This document shows, piece after piece, positions 387-62,311 of a stretch of DNA of 64,000 nt. The DNA is from Truepera sp. (lineage in GTDB: Bacteria > Deinococcota > Deinococci > Deinococcales > Trueperaceae). A program made the position numbers and the translations under genes. The notes beneath the pieces are model-generated. The model was given only the letters and a program-made list of their open reading frames with translations. It was not told the DNA's origin and ran no database searches. The first letter of the stretch is position 1. Each line of letters starts with the position of its first letter. The DNA is taken from positions 2,464,001 to 2,528,000 of the forward strand of contig CBDCKW010000009.1 in assembly GCA_965218435.1 (NCBI GenBank), read 5' to 3'.

Positions 387-640
387 TCAGTCGGGCGGGT
401 CAGTTTCAAATAATCCCACTACGCGGTCGAAAATCTTTTCAGCCACCGCCCGTCTACTCATTTGGAGCCGTTCGGCCGCGTCACCCTCCGGCGGTTACCT
501 GATTAGCTGTTAGCTGATTGTCGTCGCCACCGAATGCCGACCCCGCGCGTCGGGTAGTTAAGGCAGATGAACTCGAGCTCTTTACGCCGCGCTTTGTCCG
601 CTGCCCGCTCGACTCCCTGACACGCCTCCACCGCAAACCC
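387..640 (-). pseudogene. coaBC: Frameshifted C-terminal fragment of CoaBC (PPC synthetase domain)
   Basis: Three frames read [32 protein letters not shown] / [10 protein letters not shown] / QMSRRAVAEKIFDRVV, matching the CoaB tail GFAxET...RK...N...FGxDxN...MSK..VA..I. Confidence 0.75.
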
Positions 641-897
641 GGCTGCTCCGCCGACCTTACCGTGACGCCATGCAAAAGCCGTGCAAAAGGAGAGGCGCTG
701 GTGGAAGCTGGGGGTAAAACTCAGCTCGAAAACGCGTGTCTCACGCTTGGCTAGACTCGCAGCTTAATCCGGCAACAGTATCTACCCAATAGTGTTACGT
801 TTATCTTTGGATCACTCATTTTGCAAACCTGACTTGTAACCTCCTGACCAAAAACAATGTCCAAGTCAAGGTTGCCCTGATTCACACGGTACTGGCT

Positions 898-1485
898 TCA
901 GCTGCGCGTAATAAAAAGATCACGGAGTTTTCTGAGAGCGGTTGGCTGGACGCATTTTAGTAAATGCTCTTTGATTTGCTCTGCCATCTCTACCGGGTTT
1001 TGAGCGGTCGTGTCAATCTCGAGATCATAAAGCCCATGAGCGTGAACGCGTTCTTGCGCATTTGATAAGGCAGCTTTACTGAAGGTCTTCTCTCGGTCCT
1101 GACGTTGTAACTCTCTACGTTCTAACTCTTCAGGACTACAGCTTAGACCGATAAAGAGCACGTCGCTATGCGCAAGCAGATAGGCGAGTTCAGCAAGGTA
1201 GTAACCTTCGAGGCCGTCCATCATTACATGATCGACAATGATGTTGTTGCCAATGGACGCCATCATCGCTATGGATTGGTGCCAGCCTGAGACGGCCTTA
1301 AACACGGTCTCGTGATGTTCGGGTTGTTCCCAAGCTCTACTGATACGTTCTGGGAGCATCCGGCCTACGTCGTCAAGGCTCATATAAAGAAAAGGCGCTT
1401 CAAGTGTGTTCCTTAAAGCTTTAGCTAAACTACTTTTGCCAGAACTTGGGCTTCCGTTAATCAAGATGACCTTTCCTTTGCCCAT
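898..1485 (-). CDS. Chloramphenicol phosphotransferase-like P-loop kinase
   Basis: VILINGSPSSGKSS P-loop, NIIVDHV, ELERRE..R.DR, VH....YDLEIDTT; GGAGG SD. Confidence 0.85.
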   Translation of the reverse strand: MGKGKVILINGSPSSGKSSLAKALRNTLEAPFLYMSLDDVGRMLPERISRAWEQPEHHETVFKAVSGWHQSIAMMASIGNNIIVDHVMMDGLEGYYLAELAYLLAHSDVLFIGLSCSPEELERRELQRQDREKTFSKAALSNAQERVHAHGLYDLEIDTTAQNPVEMAEQIKEHLLKCVQPTALRKLRDLFITRS

Positions 1486-1646
1486 GCGTATAGCCTCCTA
1501 TAGTAAGGAAATACACCATCATAAGCTAAGCAACTTGGAGTGAATTAGAGAACGATATAGGCGAAAGTGTCGTACGTCGCTAGCTGTTCGAATTTCACGT
1601 ACACTCGAGAGGCACGCTTCTTCTCCGATGGCCTTACAATAGCCCC

Positions 1647-3941
1647 GTGAGCCTTCCCCCGAATCCCGACGCCGTAACGCCCAACCTCCGTGACCGCGCC
1701 GCCACTTTCGGCCTTTCTGACGACGAGTTTACGCAGGTTGTCAAACACTTGGGCCGTGAACCCAACACGCTCGAGGCCGGGATGTTCGGCGCGTTATGGA
1801 GCGAGCACTGCGGCTACAAAAACTCGAGACCACTCCTTAAAAAATTACCGACCGAAGGCAAAGCCGTGTTGCAAGGGCCAGGTGAAAACGCGGGCGTGGT
1901 GGATATCGGGGAGGGTTGGGCGGTCGCTTTTAAGATGGAGTCGCACAACCATCCTTCAGCGGTTGAACCCGTGCAGGGCGCGGCGACAGGCGTCGGCGGG
2001 ATTTTACGCGACATCTTTGCGATGGGCGCACGGCCCTTCGCGGTACTCGATTCGTTGCGGTTTGGTGAGCTGACAAGCGCCCGTACTCGCCACCTCTTAA
2101 ACGGCGTGGTAGACGGGATTGCCCACTACGGCAACGCCATCGGTGTACCCACGGTCGGCGGTGAAATCACCTTTAGCGCATGCTATGAAGAAAACCCACT
2201 GGTCAATGTGATGGCGCTCGGGCTGATGCGGCACGAGGCGTTGCAATCGGGAACCGTCGGCGAGGTCGGGAACAAGCTTATCTATGTCGGCTCGAAAACG
2301 GGGCGTGACGGGCTCGGCGGGGCGGTGTTCGCCTCGGCTGACCTGTCTGAAACCAGTCAGGCCGACCGTCCGGCAGTGCAGGTCGGCGACCCGTTTATGG
2401 AGAAACTCTTGCTCGAGGCGTGTCTGGAAGCTATCGCCCAGGATTTAGTCATCGGCGTGCAAGACATGGGCGCGGCGGGCCTCACCAGCAGCGTCGCGGA
2501 GATGGCGTACCGTGCGGGGCGCGGCGTAGACCTGTGGCTTGACGCGGTGCCGAGGCGTGAAACCGGGATGACGCCTCTGGAAGTTCTCTTGTCCGAATCA
2601 CAAGAGCGGATGGTGTTAAGTGCGCGTCCGGGCCGTGAGGCGGAACTTCTTACCCTGTTAGAGAGGTGGGAACTCGACGCCGTAGAGATCGGAGAGGTTG
2701 CGTCACACGACTTTTTTAGGATTTTGGAAAATGGTGAGACTGTTGGGGAGATGCCGGTCGCCGCGCTGAACGAAGCGCCGACCTATACCCGTGAAGGTGT
2801 AGAATCCGCCGAGGTTCGGGCGGCTCGAGAAACCCCTATCAACGTACCTATACCAGCAGACTTGGGTGCGGCGCTGCTTAAGTTGCTCTCGAGCCCCACC
2901 ATCGCCTCCAAACGCCCAGTATTTCGGCGCTACGACCAGCAGGTGATGACCAACACGGTTGTCTTACCCGGTCAGGCCGACGCAGCGGTGATGCGGGTTA
3001 AGGGGACAGGACGGGGCGTTGCCGCGACGACCGATTGCAACCCACGTTACGTCTACCTCTCGCCTAAACTCGGGGCGATGCACGCGGTCGCTGAGGCCGC
3101 CCGCAACCTCGCGTGCGTCGGCGCGACGCCCTTGGCGATTACCAACAACCTCAACTTCGGCAACCCAACCCGGAATGATGTGTATTTTGAACTCTCCGAA
3201 GCCGTGGACGGCTTGAGTGAAGCGTGCTTGGCGCTCTCGACGCCCGTCACCGGCGGCAACGTCAGCCTGTACAACCAGTACAAGGCCGGTTCCGGCGTTA
3301 AGGCCATCTATCCGACGCCGACGGTCGGCATGGTCGGGGTGTTACCGGACGTCACAAAACGCGCCACCGTAAACCTCAAGCGCGAAGGCGACGTGATGTT
3401 GCTCGTCGGGAAAAATATAGACGAACTCGGCGCGTCGGAATATCTGGCGCAGGTTCACGGGCTGGAGATTGGACAGCCGCCCCAGCTAGATTTAGCACGG
3501 GCAAAGGCGCTCAACCAGGGCGTTTCAACCTTGATTCAAGCAGGGTTATGCGACACCGCCCACGACCTCTCGGACGGTGGCCTTGCGGCCGCGTTAGTTG
3601 AAATGATGCTTGCCGGAAACCAGGGTGCTAAAGTGACGCTGGGAGACGCGCTGCGTCCCGACGCGCTTTTATTTGGCGAAGCGGCCTCGAGAGTTCTCCT
3701 CGCTGTTCCAGCCTCAGAAACCGACCAAGTGACCCAATATCTCAGCACCTACAATTTGCCCGTAACGCCTATCGGCAGCGTTGAAGGCGAGGGGCTCGAG
3801 CTGACCCTCACCGCCCACGACCAAACGCTCACTCTCAGCCTGAGCGACCTCCGCACTGCTTTTGAAACGCCGCTCCAAGCCGCGCTCGAGGGGGAACTTG
3901 TGACTGATATCTTGTTATTGCCAACCGATGACCCAGCCTGA
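1647..3941 (+). CDS. purL: Phosphoribosylformylglycinamidine synthase subunit PurL
   Basis: WSEHCGYK, ESHNHPS, GAATGVGGILRDI, DMGAAG, SESQERM, GGNVSLYN motifs. Confidence 0.98.
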   Translation: MSLPPNPDAVTPNLRDRAATFGLSDDEFTQVVKHLGREPNTLEAGMFGALWSEHCGYKNSRPLLKKLPTEGKAVLQGPGENAGVVDIGEGWAVAFKMESHNHPSAVEPVQGAATGVGGILRDIFAMGARPFAVLDSLRFGELTSARTRHLLNGVVDGIAHYGNAIGVPTVGGEITFSACYEENPLVNVMALGLMRHEALQSGTVGEVGNKLIYVGSKTGRDGLGGAVFASADLSETSQADRPAVQVGDPFMEKLLLEACLEAIAQDLVIGVQDMGAAGLTSSVAEMAYRAGRGVDLWLDAVPRRETGMTPLEVLLSESQERMVLSARPGREAELLTLLERWELDAVEIGEVASHDFFRILENGETVGEMPVAALNEAPTYTREGVESAEVRAARETPINVPIPADLGAALLKLLSSPTIASKRPVFRRYDQQVMTNTVVLPGQADAAVMRVKGTGRGVAATTDCNPRYVYLSPKLGAMHAVAEAARNLACVGATPLAITNNLNFGNPTRNDVYFELSEAVDGLSEACLALSTPVTGGNVSLYNQYKAGSGVKAIYPTPTVGMVGVLPDVTKRATVNLKREGDVMLLVGKNIDELGASEYLAQVHGLEIGQPPQLDLARAKALNQGVSTLIQAGLCDTAHDLSDGGLAAALVEMMLAGNQGAKVTLGDALRPDALLFGEAASRVLLAVPASETDQVTQYLSTYNLPVTPIGSVEGEGLELTLTAHDQTLTLSLSDLRTAFETPLQAALEGELVTDILLLPTDDPA

Positions 3942-5373
3942 GCCTACTGAACTGGACGACAAACTGCACGAGGAGTGCGGCGTCTTTGCGGTCTACCAAC
4001 CTGAACCCGCCGACATCGTGCGGTTTTGTCACCTAGGGATTTTTGCTTTGCAGCACCGGGGCCAAGAGTCGTGTGGGATTGCGGTCTCAAACGGCGACGA
4101 ACTCATCATCGAAAAAGATATGGGCCTCGTCGCTGAAGTCTTTGACGAGGCGCGGCTAGAAAAGTTGCAGCGTCCGGGCCTCCGGGTCGGTCTGGGGCAC
4201 ACCCGTTACGCCACGACGGGCGCGTCTTTACGGTTTAACGCGCAGCCGCTGACTGTGCGCTCGAATAAAGGCATTCTGGCGCTGGCGCATAACGGCAATT
4301 TTACCAACGCAAAGTCCATGCGGCAAAAGATGCTCGACGAAGGCGCGGTTTTTAACACCACGAATGACACCGAAGTGATGATCAACCTGATTGCGCGGTA
4401 TAGCAAGCTCTCTTTAGAAGACGCGACCGCGCAGGTCATGAGCGAGTTCGAGGGCGGCTTTGCGGTCGTCATTATGGACAAACAGAAGATTTTGGGTCTC
4501 CGTGACAGCCACGGCGTCCGGCCTTTAGTCATCGGAGAGCTAAACGGCGGCTATGTGTTCGCTTCGGAACCCTCGGCGCTGCATGTCATCGGCGCGACGT
4601 TTTTGCGTGATGTGCGCCCCGGTGAGCTGGTGATTGCCGATGAGCGTGGGCTCCACTCGAGGCAAGTCCTCAAACCCAAACCGACCCCGTGCGCGTTTGA
4701 ATGGATTTACTTTGCTAGGGGTGATTCGGTTTTAGACGGGGTAGATGTTCACGCTTCACGCCTCAGGATGGGTGAAGTTTTAGCTGCAGAAGCGCCGGTA
4801 GACGCCGATGTGGTCGTTGGTGTCCCCGAGTCTGGCTTAACGGCGGCGGTCGGTTACGCGAGGGCGTCAGGCATTCCTTACGATTTGGGTCTTTATAAAT
4901 CACCGTACACGGGCCGAACCTTTATCAACCCGACCCAAGACCTGCGCAAACTCAAGGTGCTCTTAAAACTTGCGCCGACCGGCGCAGTGCGGGGCAAACG
5001 TGTGGTGCTCGTAGACGACTCCATCGTTCGCGGGACGACCTCCGGGCATATCGTCCAGCTGTTGCGGAGCGCAGGCGCAACCGAGGTACATTTCCGGGTC
5101 TCATCTCCACCGATTCGTCACCCGTGTTACTACGGGATTGATACGGCTGCCCGTAAAGAGTTAGCCGCCGCCACGATGAGCACCGAGGAAATCCGCGATC
5201 TCATCGGCGCAGACTCGCTCGCGTATATCTCCGAACCGGGGTTAGCGAGGGCAATTGGCCTCGCGACCACCTGTTTGGCGTGCTTTAACGGGTCGTATCA
5301 GGCAGGTCATCCCGGTGAGGGCGCGGCAGACGAAGAACAGCTCGCGTTGCCGGTTTTTAATGCTATTGCTTAG
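3928..5373 (+). CDS. purF: Amidophosphoribosyltransferase
   Basis: EECGVF, LQHRGQES, HTRY, VLVDDSIVRGTT, PCYYGID. Confidence 0.98.
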   Translation: MTQPEPTELDDKLHEECGVFAVYQPEPADIVRFCHLGIFALQHRGQESCGIAVSNGDELIIEKDMGLVAEVFDEARLEKLQRPGLRVGLGHTRYATTGASLRFNAQPLTVRSNKGILALAHNGNFTNAKSMRQKMLDEGAVFNTTNDTEVMINLIARYSKLSLEDATAQVMSEFEGGFAVVIMDKQKILGLRDSHGVRPLVIGELNGGYVFASEPSALHVIGATFLRDVRPGELVIADERGLHSRQVLKPKPTPCAFEWIYFARGDSVLDGVDVHASRLRMGEVLAAEAPVDADVVVGVPESGLTAAVGYARASGIPYDLGLYKSPYTGRTFINPTQDLRKLKVLLKLAPTGAVRGKRVVLVDDSIVRGTTSGHIVQLLRSAGATEVHFRVSSPPIRHPCYYGIDTAARKELAAATMSTEEIRDLIGADSLAYISEPGLARAIGLATTCLACFNGSYQAGHPGEGAADEEQLALPVFNAIA

Positions 5374-5382
5374 GTCGAGGTG

Positions 5383-5423
5383 ACCAGCAAATCACCCAGC
5401 GTTCTGCTGGGCGATTTGCTGGT
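5383..5423. terminator. Long hairpin between convergent purF and aldo-keto reductase genes
   Basis: accagcaaatcacccagc-gttct-gctgggcgatttgctggt inverted repeat. Confidence 0.7.
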
Positions 5424-5434
5424 TGCTCGGTGGC

Positions 5435-10334: not shown

Positions 10335-11999
10335 TCAATCAGCTACCGGGTCTTGCACCGGTATTTCGATTTTGGCTCCCTGCGCTTCGGTAGCCCGCAC
10401 TCCGCGCCGCCCGAATTTACGGGCCAGCTCGAGTTCGCTTAAAACGAGCGCCGTAGGCCGCCCGTGTGGACACGCCCACGGGGTCTCACACGCTGCTAAC
10501 GCCTCAAGCAATCCCTGTGCATCTTTATGTACCAGCGCGTGACCCGCTTTTAACGCGGGCAAACATGCCAAGCGGCCCAATACCGCTCGCCAAGCTTCTT
10601 CGGCGCTGCCGCGCCCGAGGGCGTCGGTGACAACGCCGGCTAAGAGTTCAGGGTGTCCAAGTAAAAACGCCGGAACGGTTCGCACCCGCCAGCGGCCCCC
10701 GCCGAAGGGCTCGAGCACCAACCCTTTCGCCGCCAGCTCCCCCTGCCGAGCCAAATACGTCGCCTCATCTTCAGGCATCAGCGGTAAGAGTTCGGCGTGC
10801 GGCAGTTCACGCGGCGGCTCGAGTCGGTAACGCCTCTCTAAGTCCTCAAACAAGATACGTTCGTGCGCTGCGTGTTGGTCAACCACCCAGAGCTGCGCTG
10901 CGCCCTCGGCGAGGAGATAAAGTTCGCGGTAACGGCCCAGATAGGTGAGTGCCGGAAAATTATGACGGGGCGCTGCCGTAACGCCTTGCGCCACGCTAAA
11001 GTCAGGCAGGGCCGGAGCGAGTGAAACCGTGCTGAGAGCTGAGCTGACCGCTTCTTGAACAAACGCCGTGACTTCACCGAGCTGTAAGAACCTGACTCGA
11101 GCCTTGTCAGGCGACGTATTGACCAGAACGGTTTCCGGGGGAACGTTTAGATTAAACACGCCGACCGGGTAGTGTCCGGCGGGCAAAAGTTCTTTGTAAG
11201 ACGCTAAAACTGCCCTAAGCAATCCTTCGTCCCACTCGACCGGGCGACCGTTCACCGCAAGTAAAAGTCGGTCGCGGCGCGGGCGGGTCAGTTCGGGGCG
11301 GGACAAGAGTCCCTCGAGCTGATACGCGCCGGTTTGGTGCTCGAGCGGCAAAAGCCGGTTCGCCGTCACCGGCCCCCAGACAAACTTCGCCGCCTCGACA
11401 AACGACCCGCCCGCATAGCTCCAGCGCGGTTCACTGTCGGTTTCTAAACTCAGCTGCAGCCCCGGATGATGCAGTAAGTAGCGGTTGAGCAGGGTGACAG
11501 CGCGTTTATTTTCAGCAGCGGGGGACTCGAGCGCCTCGTACCGCGCGGGCAGCCGCGCAAACAGCCCAGTCACCTCCGCGCAAGTCCCGTTCGGGGCTGG
11601 GTGACTACGGACGTTTACGGCGTCGCCTTCAGCTAAAAGCGTCACGCCACCGAGTTGACCGGCAGGGCGACTGGTTAAGGAAAGTGTCGCAGCGTGACGC
11701 ACCGCGTAAAGCCCTTCACCGCGAAAGCCGAGCGTGCGAATATCTGTGAGGGACGCGAGTTTTGAGGTGCTGTGCGCGTCTACGGCGAGCGGCAGTTCGG
11801 CCTCGGGAATCCCTGCGCCGTTGTCTCTTACCGTCATGCGGCGGACGCCCCCAGCCTCGAGCCCTACCGAAAGCCGCGTCGCTCCGGCGTCGAGTGCGTT
11901 TTCGACAAGTTCTTTAAGCACGTCTACCGGGGCAGTGACGACCTCACCGGCGGCAATTTCACGGATGAGTTCCGGGGGGAGCTGACGAATTGCGGCCAT
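10335..11999 (-). CDS. mutL: DNA mismatch repair endonuclease MutL
   Basis: IAAGEVV, KELVENALDAG, LGFRGEGL, DQHAAHERI, CPHGRP. Confidence 0.97.
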   Translation of the reverse strand: MAAIRQLPPELIREIAAGEVVTAPVDVLKELVENALDAGATRLSVGLEAGGVRRMTVRDNGAGIPEAELPLAVDAHSTSKLASLTDIRTLGFRGEGLYAVRHAATLSLTSRPAGQLGGVTLLAEGDAVNVRSHPAPNGTCAEVTGLFARLPARYEALESPAAENKRAVTLLNRYLLHHPGLQLSLETDSEPRWSYAGGSFVEAAKFVWGPVTANRLLPLEHQTGAYQLEGLLSRPELTRPRRDRLLLAVNGRPVEWDEGLLRAVLASYKELLPAGHYPVGVFNLNVPPETVLVNTSPDKARVRFLQLGEVTAFVQEAVSSALSTVSLAPALPDFSVAQGVTAAPRHNFPALTYLGRYRELYLLAEGAAQLWVVDQHAAHERILFEDLERRYRLEPPRELPHAELLPLMPEDEATYLARQGELAAKGLVLEPFGGGRWRVRTVPAFLLGHPELLAGVVTDALGRGSAEEAWRAVLGRLACLPALKAGHALVHKDAQGLLEALAACETPWACPHGRPTALVLSELELARKFGRRGVRATEAQGAKIEIPVQDPVAD

Positions 12000-12001
12000 C
12001 C

Positions 12002-14527
12002 TTAGCTCACAGGCGTTAGGCCGCGTGCGCGGTCTTTAAGCTCGTGCAAGAGAGCGAGGGCCTCGAGCGGAGACAGACGGTTCAAGTCTTGAGTTAAAAG
12101 CTGTTCGATAACCTCTGTGGCGGCGTCTTGACCGCGGGCCTCGAGCCCGGATAACACCGTCCGCGCCCTCTCCAAAACACTCCCCGGAACCCCTGCGAGT
12201 TTGGCTACCTCTAAGCCATACGCCTTCGACGCTGGCCCCGGTAGAATTTGATGGTAAAAGGTCAACCCGCCCGCCTCTTCTTTCGCGGCGACGTGAAAGT
12301 TACGCACCGCGCCGAGTTTGCCTTCTAACGCGGTCAGTTCAAAGTAGTGTGTGGCAAATAAGACATATGAGCTGGTACACGCTTCTAAGTGTTCAGCCGC
12401 TGCCCACGCCAGTGCTAAGCCGTCAAAGGTGCTCGTCCCGCGTCCGATTTCATCTAACAGCACCAAACTTTTTGGCGTCGCGTGCTGCAAAATGGTCGCT
12501 AACTCGCTCATCTCGACCATAAAGGTGCTGCGCCCCCCGGCAATATCATCCGACGCGCCGATCCGGGTATAGATGCGTTCAAAGAGTGGCAACACCGCGC
12601 GTTCCGCCGGGACGAACGAGCCGATCTGTGCGAGGAGCGCGATCAGCGCCGCCTGCCGCAAATAGGTAGACTTGCCCGACATATTCGGCCCGGTCAGGAT
12701 AATCAGGCGTTCGCTCTTTGAGAGCTGCAAATCGTTTGGGATAAACGGATAAAACCGCTCGACCACCGGGTGACGGCCCCCTTGGATGCTCAGAGCGCCC
12801 TCGGAAAAGCTCGGGCGGCAGTAGCGGCCCTCGGCGGCAACTTCGGCGAGGGCGCTGTAGGTGTCCAACTCGGCTAAGGCCGCGCCGAGTTCGCGCACCG
12901 CGTCGGCAGCCGGGGCGAGGCCAGCCCGCAACTCGCCAAACACAGCGTATTCTCGGCCTCTAGCGGCAGTTTCGGCCCGTAAAATTTCGCGTTCGCGTTC
13001 GCGCAGGTCGGGCCGGACATAACGCTGGCGGTCTTTTAAGGTTTGCACGGCGCGGTAACTTTCCGGCACCTCGTCGTAGTACGGGCGGGTGACCTCGAGG
13101 TAATAGCCAAACACGCCGTTAAAGCCGATTTTTAAGGTTGGAATCCCGGTTGCGGCGCGTTCACCGGACTCTAACGCCGCAATCCACGCCCGCCCCGATT
13201 CGGCAGCGGCGCGGAGCGTATCGAGCTCGCTGTCAAAGCCGCTTTGAATCAGGCCACCTTCGGTGAGTTTGAGCGGTGGGTTTTCTACAAGTGCGGCGCT
13301 GATGCGTTCTTCGGTACTGCTGAGTCCCTGCAGACGTTCAGCTAACGCTTGCAGCGCCCCTTCACTGCGTCCTGCAAGCAAACTTTTAAGCTCCGGGACG
13401 AGGGCCAGACTCCGCGCTAAAGCGCAGAGGTCTCGAGCGTTCGCGCGGCCCGTCACCAGTTTCGAGGCGAGGCGCTCTAGGTCATGCAGTTTGTAAAGTG
13501 CTTTTCTGACCTCACGCCGTAAAACAGTGTCGCGGACAAACGCTTCTACGGCGTCCTGACGGCGGTTAATCAGCGGCTCTTCTAGTAAGGGATGCCGGAG
13601 CCACGCCCGTAAAAGCCTGCGTCCGGGCGCGGTGCGGGTCGTGTCTAAGATGCTTAGCAGCGTGCGAGCTTCGCTACTCGCCGTGGGCGTATTGGCCGAG
13701 AAAACCTCGAGTGTCGCCAAGGCCGTTTCTCCAACCTGCATATAGGCGCTCGGGTCATAGCGTAAAAAACGGGTGACTTGTCCGAGTTGCCCGCGCTGCG
13801 TCGTAAGCGCATACGACAAAACGGCACCGGCAGCGCGTAACACGGCGGCCTCAGCTCCCGGTGGCACGGTGCCAAAGTGAGCCTCGAGCGCACCCTGCGC
13901 CTCGTCTTCCCCAAAACGCCCGCGTGTGACCATCACCGAGAAGCGTTCGCTACACGCTTCGCGGAAATCCTCTTGCGCGTAGAGTTCAGGGGCGAGCAGC
14001 AGTTCAGCGGGGCGGTAGCGGCGAAGCTCGTCAAACAAGGCGCTTTTGCTATATAAGAGCGTGCCGCGGAACTCGCCGGTTGAAACATCTAAAAAGGTCA
14101 GTCCGTAACCCTCGCCGGTGGCGACCGCCGCTAGGTAGTTCGCGTCGGGGCGTAAGAGTTTTTCGTCTGTGACTGTACCGGGCGTGATGAGCTGCGTCAC
14201 CTCACGTTTGACAAGGCCGTCGGCCGTTGCGGGTGTTTCGGTCTGGTCGGCAACCGCCACACAGATATTTTGTTTAAGGAGTCTCTCGAGGTAGGCGTCG
14301 GCGCTCCGCACCGGAATCCCCGACATCGGGGTCGTGAAATCTTTGCTGGTTTTATGCGTCAGGGTGATGTTGATCGCCCGCGCAAACCGCTCGGCGTCTT
14401 CGCCAAACGTTTCGTAAAAGTCGCCGACTTGAAATAAGAGTAGATAGTCCGGGTAACGTTCGCGCAGCTCGACGTACTGCACGAGCAGTGGCGGTAGCGG
14501 CCCGGTTCCCTCCCCCTTAAGCGTCAT
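12002..14527 (-). CDS. mutS: DNA mismatch repair protein MutS
   Basis: FQVGDFYETF, TGPNMSGKST, STFMVEM, DEIGRGTST, FATHYFEL. Confidence 0.98.
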   Translation of the reverse strand: MTLKGEGTGPLPPLLVQYVELRERYPDYLLLFQVGDFYETFGEDAERFARAINITLTHKTSKDFTTPMSGIPVRSADAYLERLLKQNICVAVADQTETPATADGLVKREVTQLITPGTVTDEKLLRPDANYLAAVATGEGYGLTFLDVSTGEFRGTLLYSKSALFDELRRYRPAELLLAPELYAQEDFREACSERFSVMVTRGRFGEDEAQGALEAHFGTVPPGAEAAVLRAAGAVLSYALTTQRGQLGQVTRFLRYDPSAYMQVGETALATLEVFSANTPTASSEARTLLSILDTTRTAPGRRLLRAWLRHPLLEEPLINRRQDAVEAFVRDTVLRREVRKALYKLHDLERLASKLVTGRANARDLCALARSLALVPELKSLLAGRSEGALQALAERLQGLSSTEERISAALVENPPLKLTEGGLIQSGFDSELDTLRAAAESGRAWIAALESGERAATGIPTLKIGFNGVFGYYLEVTRPYYDEVPESYRAVQTLKDRQRYVRPDLREREREILRAETAARGREYAVFGELRAGLAPAADAVRELGAALAELDTYSALAEVAAEGRYCRPSFSEGALSIQGGRHPVVERFYPFIPNDLQLSKSERLIILTGPNMSGKSTYLRQAALIALLAQIGSFVPAERAVLPLFERIYTRIGASDDIAGGRSTFMVEMSELATILQHATPKSLVLLDEIGRGTSTFDGLALAWAAAEHLEACTSSYVLFATHYFELTALEGKLGAVRNFHVAAKEEAGGLTFYHQILPGPASKAYGLEVAKLAGVPGSVLERARTVLSGLEARGQDAATEVIEQLLTQDLNRLSPLEALALLHELKDRARGLTPVS

Positions 14528-22745: not shown

Positions 22746-27323
<4,578 letters not shown>

Positions 27324-27331
27324 ATTCCCCC

Positions 27332-30300
27332 TTACTTTCCTCTGCCCGATTCGTCGAAGATGCTGATCGGCTGTGCGTCGTCCATGACCTGAACATCGAG
27401 CCCAAGCGAGTGAAGCTCTTTGACCAAAACCTTAAACGATTCGGGGATGGTGGGTTCTAACACGTCGTTTCCTTTGACGATGGCCTCGTACGAGGTGTTG
27501 CGCCCGTCGATGTCATCGGACTTGATGGTAAGCATCTCTTGGAGCGTGTGCGCCGCGCCGTGCGCTTGCAGCGCCCAGCACTCCATCTCACCTAAGCGTT
27601 GCCCACCGAACTGCGCTTTACCGCCGAGCGGTTGCTGCGTGATGAGCGAGTACGGGCCAGTCGAACGGGCGTGCATCTTGTCCTCGACCATGTGGTAGAG
27701 CTTCATGACGTACATCACGCCGACGACGATAGGAGCGTCTACAGCTTCGCCGGTGTGACCGTCAAAGAGCACGGTTTTACCGGTGCGGGCAAGTGCGAGC
27801 CGCGCCGCTTCATCGTCCATATCGCGGTCAATGATGCCGAGCTTGGCGGCGCGCTCGATCACCCGCGCTTCGCGCACGTCGGTGCTAAAGCCAGCTTCCT
27901 TATCGGCGGTGAGTTCTTCACGGGTGGCGTCCTCGAGCAGATCTTTAATCTGCTCTTCGCGGGCACTGTCAAAGACCGGCGTCACGTAAGAGACGTTGTT
28001 TTTGTATGCGGCCAGTCCTAAGTGCGTTTCCAAAATCTGGCCCAAGTTCATCCGGGACGGTACCCCGAGCGGGTTAAATACGAGGTCAACCGGCGTGCCG
28101 TCGGGCATATACGGCATGTCTTCGGGCGGTAGGATTTTGGCCACCACACCTTTGTTCCCGTGCCGGTTCGCTAACTTATCGCCTTCGATCAAGCGGCGCT
28201 TTTGCGCGATATAAACGCGGACCATCTCCTGCACACCGGGTTTGAGTTCAACCCCGGCGTCGCCACGGCGAAAACGCACCGTCCGGAGGATGATGCCGCC
28301 GTCGCCGGGGGGCACGCGGAGCGAGGTGTCTTTGACCTCCCTGGCTTTTTCCCCGAAGATCGAGCGCAGGAGCCGCTCTTCGGGGGTCGGTTCGGTCTCA
28401 CCCTTAAACGAAGTGTGACCGACCAGGATGTCGCCCTGCTTGACCTCGGCACCGATCCGCACCACACCGTCTTCGTCGAGGTCGCGTAAGGCGGCTTCGG
28501 AAAGGCCGGGGATATCCCGAGTGATCTTTTCCGGGCCGAGTTTAGTGTCGCGGGCTTCTTTTTCGTACTTCTCGATGTGGACGCTCGTATATGAATCCGA
28601 CCGCACCAGCCGCTCGGACAAGACGATGGCGTCTTCAAAGTTATAGCCGTCGAAAGGCATGATGGCGATCAGGACGTTTTGACCGAGCGCCAACCGTCCA
28701 TTTTGCGAGGCGGGGCCGTCCGCGATCACTTGACCGCTGGTTACGGCGTCACCGACGTTGACGAGCGGGCGCTGGTCTAAGTTCGTATTCTGGTTTGAAC
28801 GCTGAAACCGGGTCAGCTGATACTCATGCTCGACCTTGCGGTCGTTTTCAGTAATGATACGTTTGGCGTCCACGTACGTGACGGTGCCATCTTCCGTTGC
28901 CAAAAGAACTGTGCCTGAGTCTCTCGAGACCCGCTCTTCTACCCCTGTCCCGACATACGGCGCGTCGGGTTTGATCAGCGGCACTGCTTGCGACTGCATG
29001 TTCGAGCCCATCAGTGCGCGGTTGGCGTCATCGTGTTCTAAAAAGGGGATAAGGGAAGTGGGAACGGAGATAATCTGCTTCGGCGACACGTCCATAAAGT
29101 CAACTGTTTCCGGCTCGACGTAAAAAGGGTCACCCAGACGGCGGGTCAACACGCTGTCGTTCGCAAACCCGTTGGTGTCGTCTAGCACAGTGTTGGCCTG
29201 CGCGATGACGTACTTATCTTCTTGGTGTGCGGTCATGTACTGCACGTCGTTAGTCACTTTGCCGTCAACCACGCGGCGGTAGGGCGCTTCGATAAACCCG
29301 AGCGGGTTGACCTGCGCAAACGACGCTAAAGACGTGATCAAACCGATGTTCGCACCTTCCGGCGTTTCAATCGGGCAGATGCGGCCGTAGTGAGTACGGT
29401 GCACGTCACGCACATCAAACCCGGCGCGTTCCCTGGTCAGACCACCCGGCCCGAGGGCTGAAATACGGCGTTTGTGACGGAGTTCAGAAAGCGGGTTGAC
29501 CTGATCCTTAAACTGACTGAGCTGGCTGCGACCGAAAAACTCACGTAAGGCCGCCACGATCGGACGGTTATTGACGAGTTTTTGCGGTGTGGCAGCGTCC
29601 GGGTTGCCGAGGAGCATCCGCTCGCGAACCCCACGGGCCATCCGGCCCAGGCCGACGCGAATCTGATCGGCGACGAGTTCACCAACGGTGCGAATACGGC
29701 GGTTGCCGAGGTGGTCAATGTCGTCTTCTTCGTAAGGTTCAATGCCCGCTTGGAGGTTGACGAGGTACTGAATCGCCGGGACAAGACCGTAATCAATAAA
29801 GCGGTCGTTTTCGTTGTCAAACCCGAGCAGGGTGCTCTGTTCAAACTCGAGCCCCAACTTGGTATTCATCTTGTAACGGCCCGCGTCACCGAGGTCATAA
29901 CGGCGTGGATCGGCTAAGAGGCTAAAGAGGTACGACTTGGCTTTGTCAACTTTAGGCGGATCGCCGGGGCGCAGCACGGTAAAGAGCTTGAGGAGCGCCT
30001 CTTCAACCGACGCACCGGTCGTCGTATCTTCTTCAAAGGTCGCGTCAATCAGGGCTTCGTTACCGGCAAATAAACCACGAATTTCGGCGTCGCTGTAACC
30101 TAACACACGCAAAATCAGCGTAAAGGGAAACTTCTTCTTGTTGACCTTCATCCACAAGACGTTTGAGTTGTCGAACTCGAGCTCGATCCACGGCCCGCGT
30201 TTGGGCATCGGGATAACACTCGCCATATAGGTTTTACCGAGACCTTTGGGGGCGCTCGTAAAGTAAGTACCGGGTGAGCGGTGAATCTGCGAGACGATCA

Positions 30301-30715
30301 CCCGGTCGGCCCCGTTGATGACAAACGAGCCGTCTTCAGTCATGAGCGGCAAGTCGCCCAAAAACACCTGGTCTTCTTTGATCAGGCCGGTGTCTTTATG
30401 AACGAGTTGCAGTTTGGCAAATAATCCCGAGTGGTACGAAAGGTCTTTTTCACGGCACTCTTCGGGCGTAAATTCGGGAGGCTGCAGGGTGTACTCGAGA
30501 AAATCAAGCACGAGTCCTGTCTGCCGCCCGCGTTCGGTTTCGTCTATCGGAAAAACTTCTCTAAACGCGCTTTGCAACCCGATGTCAGCTCGTTCCGGGG
30601 CGCTTTTTCCCAGCTGCAAAAACGTGTTGTAAGATTTGATCTGAATGTCAGTCAGGTTCGGGAGTTCGATCACTTCTTCGATCGTCCCAAATTTGCGAAT
30701 CTCGCGCATCGTCAC
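27332..30715 (-). CDS. rpoB: RNA polymerase beta subunit
   Basis: [39 protein letters not shown]. Confidence 0.99.
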
Positions 30716-40789: not shown

Positions 40790-41254
40790 CTAGTCTTCCT
40801 CTTCAACAGCAGGCAGAGTAACGCGAAACGTCGTCCCGCGCTCCTTAAAGCTTTCAACCAAGAGCGTCCCGCCGTGTGCGTCAGCAATCTGCTTGGCAAT
40901 CGCTAAACCGAGGCCCGCGCCGCCCACGCCTTTATGAAACTTTTCAAAGATGTGCGGGAGCAGCTCTTCAGGGATGCCGGGACCACGGTCGCGTACGAGC
41001 AGCACCACGTGCTCGTCGGTAGTAAAGAGGCCCAAGGTAACCTTGCGCGGGTTGTCGGTCGCACGCACCGCGTTGGCGGTGAGGTTACGGACGAGCTGTT
41101 TGAGGCTGTCGGGATCGCCGAGGAGCAGGTGACCGGCCTGGGCCTCGAGCCTGACTCCCGGAAACTCTTCGGCGACGGGTTTGAGGATGTCGGTCGCGGG
41201 GTCTAACAGGTGCGGCGTGTAGTCGCGGACGAGCTGCCCCCGGGTCAGTTGCAA
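40790..41254 (-). pseudogene. Histidine kinase remnant (HATPase_c only; H-box and sensor missing)
   Basis: NL..NA, D.GPGI, F.KF, GAGLGLAIA, GTTF boxes without HisKA. Confidence 0.75.
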
Positions 41255-43963: not shown

Positions 43964-45493
43964 ATGAGCCGTAAAAAACCTGCAGTCTCAGCACAACCAC
44001 GCATGGGTTCGGGCGACCTCGCCGCCGGCTTTACCGTTGCGTTAGTGCTTATTCCCCAGTCCTTGGCCTACGCCGAACTCGCGGGACTGCCGGCCCATGT
44101 CGGGCTCTACGTCGCCGCCTTGCCGCCCATCGCCGCTGCCTGGTTTGCCTCGAGCCCCTTTTTGCAAACCGGCCCTACCGCCCTGAGCGCGATTTTGTCG
44201 TTTGGGATTCTGTCGGCGCATTTTACAGTGGGCTCGAGCAGCTACCTCGGAGCCGCTGCGCTCCTGGCGCTCTTGGTCGGGATTTTCCGGATACTGCTGG
44301 GTGTGTTGCGGCTGGGCTCACTCGCTTACTTTATGAGTCAACCGGTCTTGCAAGGCTTTACCAGCGCGGCGGGCGTTTTAATTCTTAGCTCACAACTCCC
44401 GAACGTCCTCAGCGTTACCCTGCCGTCCGGGGCGGCTCAGGGCGTTTTTGCTCAGCTTGGGTGGACGCTCAGCCATTTGGGAGCGGTCAGCGGAACTGCA
44501 GTTCTTTTGAGCGTGGTCACGCTCGGGATTGTTTTTTTCGGTCGGCGTTGGTCACCCCTGTTTCCCGGCGTGCTGCTCGCCGTCCTCGGCGGCCTCGGCT
44601 TCGTCCGCGTATTCGGGTACGGCGGCCCGACGCTCGGCGCTGTGCCTTCGGGGTTGCCGCTGCCGAGTTTGCACTTCCCTTGGGCGACGCTGCCGAGTTT
44701 GCTCATCGGGGCGCTGGTGATCGCCGCAGTGGGGTTTGCCGAGCCCGCCGCGATTGCCCGCACCTTTGCCCGAGAGGGACAGCTGCGCTGGAACCCAGAC
44801 CGTGAGTTTGTCAGTCAGGGCGTCGCCAACCTCGCGGTGGGGCAGTTTCAGGGATTTCCGGTCGGGGGCAGTTTCTCGAGGAGCAGCTTAAACAAACTAG
44901 CCGGGGCCAAAAGTCGCTGGAGCAGCCTGGTCACGGGCCTGGTCACTCTGGCCTTTCTCCCTTTTGTCACCGTGCTGTCAAATCTGCCCAAAGCTGTGCT
45001 GGGCGCGGTTATCGTCACCGCCGTGGTTAACCTCATAAGGGTTGACGAGCTGACAAAGCTCTGGCGGGTCGCGCACTTTCAGGCGCTCACCTCTTAGGCC
45101 ACCTTTGCGCTGACGCTTTTGCTCGCCCCCCGAATTGACTACGCAGTGCTGCTCGGCGTCGGTTCGGCGGTCGCGCTGCATCTGTACCGCGAAACGCAGC
45201 TCGGCGTTCACCGTTACCGCAGCGACGACGCGCTCGTGTTGGAGCTTTCCGGCGTGCTTTATTTCGGCTCGGTGTATCAGCTCGAGGCTCAAACAGGCGA
45301 CTTGACCAGCGCCCTGAGTACGGTTTCGGACATCGCCGAAGTCGTCATTGACGCGGCGCAACTCGGGCGCGTGGACCTGAGTGGGGCGGTAGCATTAGAC
45401 GAACTGCGTAAACGGCTCGAGGCTGAAGGAGTCAGCGTGCGTATCATCCATTTGCGGCCTCACGTTCGTCATATGTTGGAACAGTTGCGGTAG
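43964..45493 (+). pseudogene. SulP/SLC26 anion transporter with STAS domain, interrupted by one in-frame TAG (45095-45097)
   Basis: DL.AG.TVA.VLIPQSLAYA.LAG, GSFSRS; same frame continues *ATFALTLL...LYFGS...D.SG. Confidence 0.88.
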
Positions 45494-54503: not shown

Positions 54504-54524
54504 CTTTAGTGCTACACTCTCTTT

Positions 54525-55166: not shown

Positions 55167-55206
55167 CGCCTACGGACACGAGGCGTAGCGGCCCGTACAA
55201 TAAAGC

Positions 55207-57154: not shown

Positions 57155-57214
57155 GCCCAAAAGATTGGTCTGCTAAAGGGCATACGTCCTGTAGGGCGGC
57201 GGGTAAAATACGGT

Positions 57215-58357: not shown

Positions 58358-58413
58358 CAAGTTCTAAACGTTCGGGCTCGAGCCTCTCCCTTTATCGTCG
58401 GCTAGAATAGGGG

Positions 58414-58968
58414 ATGCTCGAGTTTTCTTTACCTACCATGTCGGTCGAAGAATACCTGGCGTGTGAACAAAAAGGCGACGTTCGCCATGAATACGTCAAT
58501 GGTTATGTCTACGCTTTGGCAGGTGGCACCAGTCGCCATAACCGTATCTCTCTAAACATTGCTGCCCACTTTTTGCAGCTGGCACAGAGCAAACCGTGCC
58601 GCGTCTACCAAGAAGGCATGAAACTTCGCACCGAAGACAACGTTTTTTACTATCCGGACGTGATGGCAGTCTGCGGCAAACCTGAACCCGACCCTTTTTT
58701 TGAAACCGAACCGTGCGTGTTGGTCGAAGTTTTGTCACCGAGCACCAAAAACACCGACCTACGCGAAAAACTGACCGCGTACAAAAGCTTGCCGAGTGTG
58801 CAGACCTATCTGATTGTCGAGGCTGAGCGGCTGGCGGTGCGGCGGTTTTGGGTAGATGATACGCGCCGCTGGCAGCAAGAAGACCTGACCGGCGACGGCG
58901 ATATCCCGCTGCCTTGTCTGGACGGGGTGCTGAGTTTGCCGCAGATTTACCGAAATGTTTTTAGCTAG
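58414..58968 (+). CDS. Uma2 family endonuclease
   Basis: RHEYVNG...A.AG....H, YYPDV, VEVLSPST...D..EK. Confidence 0.92.
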   Translation: MLEFSLPTMSVEEYLACEQKGDVRHEYVNGYVYALAGGTSRHNRISLNIAAHFLQLAQSKPCRVYQEGMKLRTEDNVFYYPDVMAVCGKPEPDPFFETEPCVLVEVLSPSTKNTDLREKLTAYKSLPSVQTYLIVEAERLAVRRFWVDDTRRWQQEDLTGDGDIPLPCLDGVLSLPQIYRNVFS

Positions 58969-58976
58969 CAGCGTGT

Positions 58977-59390
58977 TCAGCTAAAAGGGTTTTGTACCTG
59001 TACCCCTGCAACGACCTGACCTGCATTTAGGTCTTCCGAGTACAGAACCTCACACCCTAAACGTGCCGCACTGGTGAGAATCATTGCGTCCCAGAACGAA
59101 ATAAGTGTCTCTTGGTGGAGTTTGATAGCGCTTATTACATCCAAGGCTGTCGGCTCGTGAACAGTCCAGTGCGTGTAGCGTTCTACAAGTTGACTTGCAG
59201 CTACCGGCGTGAGCAACTGTTTTCCGGTCGTAACCGTGTAGAATTCTTGCAGTACTTGTACGCTTAAACCGCCCTCAAATGACTCCCAGAGGTTACGCAC
59301 GAGCGCTGCAGCCTGTTCACGCTTTTCTCCTGCAGAAGTGTCGTGCGCGTAAACCAGTACATTGCTATCAATGAACGCCTTAGCGCTCAT
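58977..59390 (-). CDS. PIN-domain toxin
   Basis: FIDSNVLVYA.D, QVLQEF, SFWDA.I, LYSEDL..GQ...NPF. Confidence 0.9.
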   Translation of the reverse strand: MSAKAFIDSNVLVYAHDTSAGEKREQAAALVRNLWESFEGGLSVQVLQEFYTVTTGKQLLTPVAASQLVERYTHWTVHEPTALDVISAIKLHQETLISFWDAMILTSAARLGCEVLYSEDLNAGQVVAGVQVQNPFS

Positions 59391-59622
59391 GCAGTTCGTC
59401 CCTCGTCCAGCTCGCTTTGCCGTAAGTGCCTAGATTATAGCCCTGCTCGAGCGCAGCCAGCGCCTCTCTTTTAGCACGGGCGTAGTCGCTCTCGTCGGCG
59501 ACGAGCGCCTCGAGCTTCTCCCGCAACATCGCCGAAACCGATGTACCCCGCTTCGCCGCAATAACTTTAACCTCTCGGAGCGTTTCTTCGGGCAGTGCTA
59601 GGGTAATATTTCGCATCGCCAT
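59380..59622 (-). CDS. RHH/CopG-type antitoxin
   Basis: RNITLAL.......K..AA..GTSVS, WTRDELHER; upstream TTACGTG direct repeats flank a TACACT -10. Confidence 0.85.
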   Translation of the reverse strand: MAMRNITLALPEETLREVKVIAAKRGTSVSAMLREKLEALVADESDYARAKREALAALEQGYNLGTYGKASWTRDELHER

Positions 59623-59673
59623 ACTTCACCTCACGTAAAAGAGTGTAACACGTAAGTTTGTGTGTTTACGGCA

Positions 59674-62311
59674 CTACAAATCCCCGAAGAGCCCGGACTG
59701 CGCGCCTGCTTCCCTCACTTCAGGCGCTTTACGCTCCGCGTCCGTTGGGATAGGAAAATCCGCCGCCGCAAACACCTCGCCGGAGACGACCGCCGCCAGT
59801 TTTTCCGAAAGTTCAGGCCACGCCGCTACCGTCGCCTCGAGCACCCACAAAAGTTCTAAGAGTTCCCGCGTCAGCTCCGCCGTCCAGCGTTCGGGGCGAA
59901 TTTTATCGAGGTCAGAGGACGAGCGCCCCGCCCGCTCCCGCATCCGGTAGCCGAGCCAGCTTTTTACCACGCTCAAGCCCGATACCGAGAATGCCCACAC
60001 CTCCGGCGAGACCGGGCCAAACTCACCCGCGCCCACGTGCAGCGTTTTGCTCTCCGGGTCATACGAAAAATCGTTGGGATACGCTTCCGGCGCGTTCGGC
60101 ACCGCCACTGTGTTACGCGCTTCACCTCGCGGCACGCTGCCGCCGAACCGTTCGCCGCCCAGCCTTTCACCATAGGTGTGTAGCCCGATGAGCGAACGCC
60201 CAAGTGCCGCCACTTCACCAAAGAGCGCCGCATCTTTTGTCACCGGCAGACGCGGCCCCGGCAGCACCAGCTCTTCAGAAAATGTTTCGACGTAAGACGG
60301 CGAGGCCAAAAGCCTGTAAGCGTAGGCGAAAAAGTCTTCGGGAGAGACCGCAAAGTCATACGTTTCTGCCAGCACGTCTAAAAGCCCCGCTGTAACGTTC
60401 GGTTCAGAGGCCGCCGCATCCCGCCAGAGGGGAACTGCTCGACCATTACGACCATGAAAATAGTTCATGTCGGGAACGTAAGCAGATACGGAAGCACCAG
60501 GGCCGACACCTAGAACTTCAGTAAACAGAGTCGTCATGAAAACCTGCTTTGCACTGTATGTGTACCAAAGGTCATTACGAAAACGGTCAGCAAAGCGCGT
60601 ATCTGCATATATCCATTGCTTATCAAAACTGCGAAAGCCATAGCACGTTATCGGCGGAGGCGGGGCATCTTGCGGCAACGAAGCTAAAGCAGGCGCTCTC
60701 GAGCCGTCCAGATTTTCGTAAACACCGCTCACTTTGCGGGCACCTGTTTCACGGAATAGTTGGGCTCGTCTTTCCGTGGAAGCTGACAAAAATGTCTTCC
60801 AACGTTGCACCAGAACGTCTTTTATCTCAGAAATCGGCCAACTACACTTAAGCTGTGACCCTGAGTGCTGCCACGGAAACAAATCGGTTAAAAAAGGCCA
60901 ACTATGGTAATCGCCTGTACCTTCTGGCAAAAACGGAGCTTTCCAGTCTAAAAAGCAGTCTTGCCACGTCACATTACTGAAGCTTTGAATCTGGGTGAGT
61001 TGCTCGAGCTTTCCTTCTTTCGTTCCTTCTAATTTCGCGTAATGCACCTTCGCAGGTTCATCCGGTTTCGGTTTCCCGTACCGCACACCTACGGCAATCG
61101 CCACGGGCGTCTGGATGTTAAAGACGTTTTGCGTCTTGCATGCGCCTAAGCTGTCGCCTTCCAAATCCAAAATCCACAGCTCGTCGAAGGTGCGGCGCAG
61201 GTGTTCGCGCATCCCGACAAAACCGGGGCCGCGCAGGTAGCTGGCGGCGGTAATAAACGAGATGATGCCCGCGTCCTGCGGCTGCTCAAAGACTTTCCAA
61301 AGCGCCCAACGCCAAAAGTAGACATAATCGTTGTACAAGTTTTTGATGTGCCCGCCCTGACCGGCGTCCACGGCGGGTTGCGTAAAGTCTTTTAAGATGC
61401 CGTTCGTTTGGTCGTTTAGGTTTTGCTGACCAAAACGCACCCAACCGCCTTTAAGTGCCACTTTATTTTTGAGGTCGTCTTTATCGCGCGTTTGCCGGTC
61501 GTATGGCGGATTGCCGATGCAGACCAAAACGCGAGTGTCTTGTTTGACCTCTCTAGCGCGGCGGTGTTCTTCGGTCAGGCGGCGGTACATGAGGCCGTGC
61601 TGCTCCAAGTCTCTGGCTTCGGGGGACTCGAGGGTGTCCGCCAGATAGACATGCACCCCGTCGGCGGGTAGTTCGCCGCCCTCTTCCATCACCTTTTGCG
61701 TCACGCGCAGGTGCGCCACCGCGTAGGGGCCGACGAGAAACTCTAACGCGTGCAGGTTTTGCGCGACCTTCGTGGCGTACTGGCTCCGCATTCCGGGGCC
61801 GTAAAACTCGGCGACGTTCTCTAAGGCGTGTTGCAACACTGCGAGCGGATACGCGCCGGTTCCGGCTGCCGGGTCGAGCACCACGACATCATCTTCAGCG
61901 TAGGCCAGGGGTTTGTCGAAACGGGTTTCTAAAAGTTCAGCGACGAGTCGCACCTGCGCTTGAATGACCGGCGCGGGCGTGTAATAGACGCCGTAATCGT
62001 TGCGGAGACGGCGGTCATAGGCAGCCAAAAAGTCTTCGTAAAAATAGAGCTATAGGTCAGGGCCATTAGGCCCAGGCACTGAGTGCCTAACCTGGGGGTC
62101 GTTGCCTTCTTTGCTCAGGGCTGCCGGGTCTACGGCGGTGATGGTCCGAATCAACGTCTAAACCGACACCCACGTCGCGGCGGGCCTCACGGTCGCTTAA
62201 AATCACCAGCGTTTGGGCGAGGAGACCGTGACCGGACTCGAGGGTTTCGGCGGCCCGTTCGGGCCGGACGTTCTCCGCGCCGCTAAAGCGGGTCAAAAGG
62301 AGCGCGTAGGT
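59674..62311 (-). pseudogene. Fused restriction-modification enzyme (Type IIG/ISP-like N6-adenine MTase plus TRD), 5'-truncated with frameshift and TAG
   Basis: GVYYTP, LDPAAGTG, IGNPPY; upstream DL*LYFYEDFLAAYD with TAG at 62050-62052, frameshift near 62150, similarity ends at TYALLL near 62311. Confidence 0.85.

Follow-up and report, generated by a model that had tools for sequence, protein, structure and literature searches.

The window analysed here is a stretch of 64,000 nucleotides from the genome of Truepera sp. (assembly GCA_965218435.1, G000 below), and the element in question is the palindromic hexamer CTCGAG. An earlier note on this DNA had counted about 130 copies by hand in 64 kb, against about 20 expected; the exact number is 132 in 64,000 bases, with 19.5 expected from base composition (GC content 57.0%) and 24.7 from an order-2 Markov model. 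The copies are scattered over 572..62242, belong to no particular strand and represent a 64-kb sample of a genome-wide word. The first copy lies at 572, as had been stated, whereas the last one begins at 62237, slightly beyond the end given before (62232). In purL (plus strand) the word occurs in all three frames, exactly as described earlier: in frame 0 at 2412..2417, where it encodes Leu-Glu (CTC GAG), in frame 1 at 2824..2829, where it encodes Ala-Arg-Glu and forces the rare codon CGA, and in frame 2 at 2888..2893, where it encodes Leu-Ser-Ser (TCG). Two probable pseudogenes, a histidine-kinase fragment (40790-41254, minus strand) and a sulfate permease gene in two pieces (43964-45493, plus strand), also hold CTCGAG.

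The local differences in density noticed by eye were reproduced in the exact counts. The first 22.7 kb contain 63 sites and are mildly rich (P = 0.014, uncorrected for multiple looks), the rpoC-rpoB stretch (22746..30715, minus strand) is mildly depleted, with 8 sites in 7.97 kb where 17 were expected (P = 0.011, likewise uncorrected), and no copy is present in tuf, hemH, the SDR gene, the DUF6157 gene or beyond 62.3 kb. The zeros of single genes lie within chance (Poisson P0 of 0.08 for tuf, 0.09 for hemH, and 0.20 for the SDR gene).

Frequency of CTCGAG and coding constraints

The assembly comprises 9 contigs with a marker completeness of 100%, and its rpoB places it in the Trueperaceae, Deinococcota, the nearest named records being 80-97% identical. 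It contains 9,883 CTCGAG in 4,805,864 bases, which corresponds to 2.06 per kb (2,056 per Mb, or one per ~490 bases). The genome-wide observed-to-expected ratio (O/E) was 6.7, 5.2, 3.4, and 1.24 for Markov models of order 0, 2, 3, and 4, respectively, the last value being low since CTCGAG inflates its own 5-mers. By the order-2 ratio CTCGAG ranks first among the 4,096 hexamers of the whole genome, while every other palindromic hexamer has an O/E of at most 1.13 and most are avoided. Extreme avoidance was observed for GGCGCC (0.02), GGGCCC (0.03), and TTTAAA (0.04), and AGGCCT, GCATGC, and RGATCY are avoided as well. The flank preference of CTCGAG is soft: the top 8-mer is GCTCGAGC, yet the two flanks are independent, and occupancy is graded by the neighbouring base, being 0.68 when G precedes the word and 0.17 when T does.

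An excess of this kind could be a by-product of codon use, of a bias for TCGA or of the avoidance of all other palindromes, and nearly all other palindromes are in fact avoided in G000. Genes were called with a self-trained model (4,035 coding sequences), and synonymous codons were shuffled ten times within each gene, keeping protein and codon use. The excess outlived these shuffles in all frames, with 6,309 sites observed against 1,954 expected in frame 0 (3.2-fold), 494 against 70 in frame 1 (7.0-fold), and 1,304 against 253 in frame 2 (5.2-fold). A shuffle conditioned on neighbouring bases gave 2.5-, 10.7-, and 3.6-fold, respectively. In the codon shuffle CTCGAG was the top word of frames 1 and 2 and number seven in frame 0; with all frames taken together, TTTAGA (3.69-fold) lay slightly above CTCGAG (3.56-fold). 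A separate strong codon-pair bias of the type TTT-TTA, TTTTAG, or TTTAGA exists genome-wide. Uncalled (intergenic) DNA holds 1,488 CTCGAG (O/E of 5.7). TCGA bias is no explanation, as the window has 357 TCGA versus 324 expected, and other palindromes with a TCGA core are depleted genome-wide (TTCGAA 0.21, GTCGAC 0.15, ATCGAT 0.25).

The preference is visible in the codons themselves: CTC makes up 70% of Leu codons before GAG, 35-39% before GAC or GAT, and 11% before GAA, and CGA makes up 6% of Arg codons overall and 42% where it completes CTCGAG. The Leu-Glu dipeptide reaches 1.26 times its expectation, compared to 0.81 for Val-Glu and 0.88 for Ile-Glu. In the high-GC Trueperaceae, the in-frame excess (odds of 1.8) is close to that of unrelated GC-rich controls (1.5) and may be mostly codon use. 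For G000 the by-product explanation is refuted by the codon shuffles, and the order-0 ratio, off-frame O/E values of 6-17 in enriched lineages and the retention of sites against a congener (see below) also speak against it, so that we regard it as extremely improbable. The results support the view that CTCGAG is a HIP-like word (HIP, highly iterated palindrome), frame-independent, genome-wide and kept at the DNA level beyond protein-coding needs.

Distribution, gain and loss

On the 3.94-Mb contig C9, each 100-kb bin contains 191-246 CTCGAG, and the gaps between sites have a coefficient of variation of 0.95 with a slight shortage of very short gaps. CTCGAG occupies 6,287 of 11,727 Leu-Glu pairs, homogeneously among genes (chi2/df of 1.02). 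No 500-bp window of C9 exceeded chance, the densest holding 6 sites (the position of dnaA was not found), promoters of G000 were not enriched, and no arm polarity was found, asymmetric flanks being balanced between both GC-skew arms. In a Fourier analysis of C9 over periods of 4 to 200 kb, the highest peaks, at 72 and 10.6 kb, were not significant (p = 0.16). The five multicopy insertion sequence (IS) families have no CTCGAG in 3,852 bp (P = 2e-4 versus the genome rate), the 16S stretch has none either, and the single copy in 544 bp of CRISPR (clustered regularly interspaced short palindromic repeats) spacers is too few to judge. The most atypical tenth of the genes has 1.61 CTCGAG per kb, the most typical tenth 1.78, and genes with at least 3 avoided words 1.49. 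The earlier proposal that site density may date gene acquisition thus holds weakly in bulk, for the IS families and the most atypical genes, but not beyond, as occupancy is homogeneous, the core genes tuf and hemH lack sites and two plasmid-like contigs are richer than the chromosome. CTCGAG density therefore separates very new arrivals in bulk, and single genes are not datable by it.

The two plasmid-like units, C6 (200-13181; 12,981 bp) and C8 (200-10532; 10,332 bp), which are covered by loci L608 and L609, are the densest CTCGAG DNA of the assembly, with 65 dispersed and 33 copies, respectively; each contig is a tandem read-out of one unit. C6 has 5.0 sites per kb inside and outside genes, whereas chromosomal 13-kb windows hold 28 sites on average and 42 at most. 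The gene content includes a primase, a helicase, an integrase (a tyrosine recombinase on C6), and a PemK or ParE toxin with a helix-turn-helix gene. Larger accessory contigs are poorer (1.3-2.2 per kb). The Meiothermus phage MMP17 (L607) carries 87 CTCGAG in 33 kb (O/E of 7.7); an annotated D12-class adenine methyltransferase adjoins a Vsr-like gene in this phage (26062-27388). When viral contigs were scanned, triple CTCGAG turned up at 131 loci, most of which are local repeats.

We surveyed 201 Deinococcales genomes with GAGCTC as the control word. All 16 genomes of an uncultured family (f5) had 4.3-6.7 CTCGAG per kb, followed by genera g35, g41, and g42 (25 genomes; 1.4-3.5 per kb, with all four g41 genomes at 2.5-3.4), family f3 (17 genomes; 0.7-2.9), the Trueperaceae (56 genomes; 0.3-2.6), and genus g32 (29 genomes; 0.6-1.6), which is near the GAGCTC control and thus weakly enriched. 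Family f2 (56 genomes) had only 0.01-0.27 per kb. We call g32 Thermus-like and f2 Deinococcus-like, as these groups appear to be, judging in part by where the TaqI orthologue occurs. Among named genomes, C. chliarophilus has 16,086 copies, C. roseus 11,307, M. taiwanensis 7,001, and M. rufus 5,827, and plasmid pMESIL01 of Allomeiothermus silvanus has 599 CTCGAG versus 99 GAGCTC. The word is thus high in f5, the Meiothermus group and many Trueperaceae, whose members include hot-spring and soil bacteria; among 75 rpoB loci, those outside Deinococcota were without a comparable excess. One locus from a record titled Myxococcota (L259), possibly a misbinned Deinococcota contig, has 45 CTCGAG in 12 kb around a gene of methyltransferase family A (see below), with 8 expected. 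Frames were analysed per group in 5-82 kb of homology-framed coding DNA, several groups having too few off-frame sites. The off-frame O/E was 16-17 in f5, 6-10 in the genomes G139, G051, G180, and G105 and in low-GC Trueperaceae, 1.8 in high-GC Trueperaceae, and 0.5 in unrelated GC-rich controls. Leu-Glu reached 1.8-2.0 times its expectation in f5.

Gain and loss of sites were analysed against the congener G203 in 761 orthologous genes (735 kb of coding DNA; 1.17 Mb of ~3.7 Mb of G203 used). At 1,728 common Leu-Glu pairs, 0.81 of the CTCGAG sites were retained, compared to 0.14-0.61 for 13 control dicodons. Retention at identical residues was 0.81 in frame 0, 0.81 in frame 2, and 0.23 in frame 1, and in every frame it exceeded those controls that were large enough to be useful. 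A 12-state codon model put a 29- to 38-fold weight on CTCGAG and one of ~0.8 on the Leu-Asp control. The best fit was obtained when gain and loss shared the effect (negative log-likelihood of 5393.3 for h = 0.5 and 5395.7 for h = 0.25), whereas gain only (5415.5; 22 units) and loss only (5407.9; 15 units) were worse. Compared with the controls, CTCGAG sites thus arise more quickly and disappear more slowly, a pattern expected of selection or biased repair. Weak selection of the fitted size predicts a split of ~0.36 by the standard fixation formula, and biased mismatch resolution, including Elhai's repair model, predicts the same gain-loss shape (PMC4390886, in the text available). The idea of a mutational generator whose products decay neutrally is disfavoured, because the gain-only model fits worse than mixed gain and retention. 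Of the statement that a methylation- or repair-driven system "creates or maintains" the sites, maintenance at the DNA level is therefore supported, and creation alone is less favoured. A comparison of contigs from two runs was uninformative (among 40 of 1,037 differences listed, none lay in CTCGAG, with ~0.7 expected).

Methyltransferases, nucleases and the origin of the bias

The methyltransferase evidence (METHYLTRANSFERASES) concerns three gamma-class families, namely family A, the orphan of G000, family B, which is PaeR7I-like, and family C, the TaqI orthologue. In SMRT (single-molecule real-time) sequencing, N6-methyladenine (m6A) in CTCGAG was attributed to solitary enzymes in M. ruber, M. 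chliarophilus, and Marinithermus hydrothermalis, and no nuclease is listed for them in the part of PMC4752239 at hand. The orphan XhoI/PaeR7I-like methyltransferase suggested by the earlier note was not found in G000: six-frame open reading frames (ORFs) gave only distant matches, with best E values of 2e-9 for a profile of 13 PaeR7I-like proteins and 1e-8 for a profile of 20 TaqI orthologues. A XhoI nuclease was detected in 5 of the 201 genomes and not in G000; Vsr was absent from G000 and all 16 f5 genomes and present in 15 of 201, mostly CTCGAG-poor ones. A 5-methylcytosine (m5C) enzyme of the C5 type common to f5 was not seen, as the three f5 C5 enzymes compared were at most 35% alike. Although enriched, f5 and g41 have no full-length close match to family A or B, and no methylase common to both was found (N6_Mtase, 60 genomes; three families, 5 genomes; D12, MT-A70, and EcoRI-type enzymes were not searched there). 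Two further candidates were rejected, a solitary C5 enzyme (C9:679783) since it is sporadic (4 of 201 genomes at E 1e-40), and the TaqI orthologue since 30 of its 31 genomes (of 201) belong to the weakly enriched Thermus-like group.

Several loci touch on CTCGAG restriction. Genomes G018, G033, G083, and G003 of family f3 (L324-L327) have XhoI-family genes with no adjoining methyltransferase seen and no family-B match, and they hold 1,400-3,900 CTCGAG; the nuclease may be inactive, retargeted or otherwise protected against. In G016 (L328) a PaeR7I-like methyltransferase gene is followed by a frameshifted XhoI-family nuclease gene, possibly a restriction system turning into an orphan methylase. 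Within the window, a 784-amino acid (aa) type ISP/IIG methyltransferase-specificity protein (59674..62028, minus strand) lacks ~300 N-terminal residues of its best profile and differs from the type II kind known to methylate CTCGAG. The mismatch repair genes mutL and mutS (10335..14527, minus strand) are also present in the window and together contain 15 CTCGAG.

These results show a per-site, context-graded bias at the DNA level for intact CTCGAG on chromosome, plasmids, and phage. We tentatively favour, at somewhat less than even confidence, the explanation that much of Deinococcales has CTCGAG as its highly iterated palindrome, held by a force on the DNA itself, exerted by a host DNA-maintenance or recombination protein. 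Such a protein would recognise intact CTCGAG. When a replication error or recombination with incoming DNA leaves the two strands different, one with CTCGAG and the other with a variant deviating by one base, it would keep the strand bearing CTCGAG. At Leu-Glu sites this bias would have the effect of selection with S near 3.5, and it would act on any DNA long resident in the cells. The solitary PaeR7I-like m6A enzymes of several lineages would then be accessory or replaceable rather than required. A methylase indeed seems not to be required, because f5 and g41 are enriched without a full-length close match to family A or B, and A. silvanus is enriched without detected CTCGAG methylation; the SMRT methylome of A. 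silvanus comprises 5 motifs, none of them CTCGAG (PMC4752239, in the part at hand).

A number of observations weigh against this explanation. No trans-acting protein was found. SMRT sequencing misses most m5C, so that the A. silvanus negative covers only m6A and N4-methylcytosine, and the CTCGAG count of this species comes from pMESIL01. Within g35, families A and B are mutually exclusive (14 and 4 of 18 genomes), and A or B occurs in 16 of 17 strongly enriched Trueperaceae versus 16 of 39 weakly enriched ones, where kin are not independent and the score for "strong" also reflects avoidance of control words; together this hints that methylation matters there. The gain-loss model assumes a steady state and cannot separate biased repair from true selection, and G000 and G203 differ in TTA use. 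Plasmids richer than the chromosome fit selection of a self mark at least as well. The assignment of these plasmids, including C6, to the G000 host rests on binning, avoided words in common with the host and chromosomal homologues, and the tetramer profile of C6 fits no reference well, so that its host is not certain.

A methylase model built on the earlier note, in which CTCGAG is marked by an orphan m6A methyltransferase of the host and its sites arise and persist through methyl-directed repair in an Elhai-type ratchet, gains from these g35 and Trueperaceae patterns and from the relatives with SMRT-typed m6A CTCGAG. Family B is 64% identical to annotated paeR7IM, has close matches in 14 of 201 genomes and occurs in the CTCGAG-rich genome of C. 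chliarophilus. The G000 enzyme would have to be family A, a 564-aa gamma-class m6A orphan encoded near dnaG (C9:3672240-3673934), replaced by family B in other lineages. In G163 (L350, C4:627000-645000) the family-A gene is in fact split by a B-bearing insert of ~8.5 kb, which holds the PaeR7I-like gene and two transposase-like ORFs. Family A has strong matches in 28 of 56 Trueperaceae and in 14 of 18 g35 genomes, adjoins dnaG in 7 of 29 relatives' loci and has a CamA/BseCI/TaqI fold, which points to class and not specificity. Family A was first taken as the CTCGAG methylase and was downgraded because its nuclease-paired loci are depleted in CAGCTG. Outside Deinococcota it adjoins a conserved probable endonuclease, and at 72 such loci the O/E of CTCGAG is 0.97, whereas at family-A loci none of the 4,096 hexamers is more depleted than CAGCTG (0.44), with 0.39-0.57 at every distance from the gene against 1.32 in controls that were not taxon-matched. 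CTCGAG is also low (0.64) inside family-A genes and their partners, and when codons were shuffled inside the family-A genes, GGGCCC came out lowest, followed by CAGCTG. The partner, a conserved protein of 230-340 aa without Pfam or PADLOC match at most non-Deinococcota loci (L244-L323, L169-L172), is probably an unnamed type II nuclease family whose site is likely CAGCTG. The family-A tree (fast method) mixes Deinococcota copies with nuclease-paired relatives, 15 of 26 Trueperaceae with family A alone are only weakly enriched, and the enrichment of f5, g41, and A. silvanus without A or B is a further difficulty. CAGCTG entries in the accessible part of table S3 of PMC4752239 and CAGCTG counts in the 201 genomes did not settle the target; in our judgement it has about an even chance of being CAGCTG, a clearly smaller one of being CTCGAG and a slight one of being another word. 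We consider the methylase model doubtful.

Possible, though improbable, is that CTCGAG is a selected self mark at DNA entry, which aids uptake, survival or recombination of incoming DNA, much like uptake sequences and Chi; molecular drive would enrich chromosomes in it, and plasmids as well as temperate phages would gain it to establish themselves. The same gain-plus-retention signature, the enriched phage and the top density on small plasmid-like contigs, with no relaxase seen among 16 proteins scanned, agree with this idea, as do the presence of ComEC in 19 of 20 genomes checked, including G000, and the HIP1 precedent in Synechococcus PCC 7002 (bioRxiv 10.1101/2024.09.10.611283; PMC13756078; both in part). 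Very unlikely, in contrast, is the reading that Xu, Lawrence, and Durand proposed for HIP1, in which a protein organising the nucleoid or chromosome binds the sites and their even or periodic spacing is under selection. Conservation, the very even 100-kb density and the few very short gaps would suit such sites; the lack of a significant period between 4 and 200 kb (by Fourier analysis, not the spacing method of Xu), densities from 0.01 to 6.7 per kb within one order and the enrichment on plasmids and phage do not. Going further than our favoured explanation, one may speculate, with modest expectation, that CTCGAG is an old, methylation-independent "self" word of most non-Deinococcus Deinococcales, read by a protein at DNA entry or recombination, for which orphan methyltransferases later became replaceable passengers. 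If so, a "self" word would have rewritten codons and proteins, small plasmids and phages would load it to establish themselves, and orphan CTCGAG methyltransferases would protect abundant sites, giving a second phylum-scale HIP system with cultured strains with and without methylase.

Relation to known systems

We found no report of a CTCGAG excess in Deinococcota in the literature, coverage being thin for subscription journals and REBASE. PMC4752239, as far as its text was available, describes CTCGAG methylation and an origin cluster in Nocardia and states no genome-wide excess in Deinococcota, and the accessible text of bioRxiv 10.64898/2026.06.24.734251 lists CTCGAG among methylated motifs of hot-spring genomes and makes no statement on its abundance. 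New are the Trueperaceae case, the order-wide map, the excess on plasmids and phage, the gain-loss estimate and cultured strains of known methylome, some of which have the enzyme and some of which lack it. The function of HIP1 has been open for three decades, and a second, independent HIP in cultured SMRT-typed strains provides natural controls: M. ruber and C. chliarophilus have both the word and an m6A enzyme, A. silvanus has the word while CTCGAG methylation was not detected in it, M. hypogaeus carries family A alone, the Thermus-like genus is weakly enriched and the Deinococcus-like family has almost none. With these strains it is directly testable whether the methylase is cause or passenger and whether repair bias or a self mark is at work. 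In practice, CTCGAG can also serve to bin Deinococcota contigs and to match plasmids and phages with their hosts.

PaeR7I/XhoI type II restriction-modification systems recognise CTCGAG, and family B is of the PaeR7I type; sites of such systems are normally avoided, and neither a PaeR7I-like methyltransferase nor a XhoI-family nuclease was found in G000. The DNA uptake sequence (DUS) of Neisseria, the uptake signal sequence (USS) of Haemophilus, and Chi are longer, non-palindromic words, and Chi is strand-polarised. CTCGAG is a palindrome without polarity and has no known receptor; like these words (DUS is mentioned in PMC6561018, seen in part), it is abundant genome-wide, kept against coding pressure and protein-shaping. 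The orphan CTCGAG enzymes of Blow et al. 2016 (PMC4752239, in part) concern the same word and are solitary enzymes in close relatives of G000. In Nocardia, according to the same text, CTCGAG carries m5C together with Vsr and forms an origin cluster, whereas neither cluster nor Vsr was found in G000.

The closest likeness is to HIP1 (GCGATCGC) and the alternative HIPs of cyanobacteria, as described in the available parts of Elhai 2015 (PMC4390886) and Xu et al. 2018 (PMC5861425). Both systems are palindromic, frame-independent, conserved and clade-wide, and both are loosely tied to orphan methyltransferases, with some enriched genomes lacking them (S. elongatus in Elhai's case); the 2,056 CTCGAG per Mb lie inside Elhai's range of 500-2,500. 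HIP1 raises natural transformation in a way that depends on methylation (bioRxiv 10.1101/2024.09.10.611283; PMC13756078; both in part). Here the phylum and the word are different (CGATCG is depleted in G000, O/E of 0.15), CTCGAG has six letters and only softly prefers G/C at its flanks, the excess is 5- to 7-fold compared to 15- to 300-fold for HIPs, and the associated enzymes are m6A gamma-class. Xu et al. reported a periodicity of 10-90 kb for HIP; the Fourier analysis of C9 gave p = 0.16. In frequency, frame independence and conservation, CTCGAG works like a cyanobacterial HIP without being HIP1 itself.

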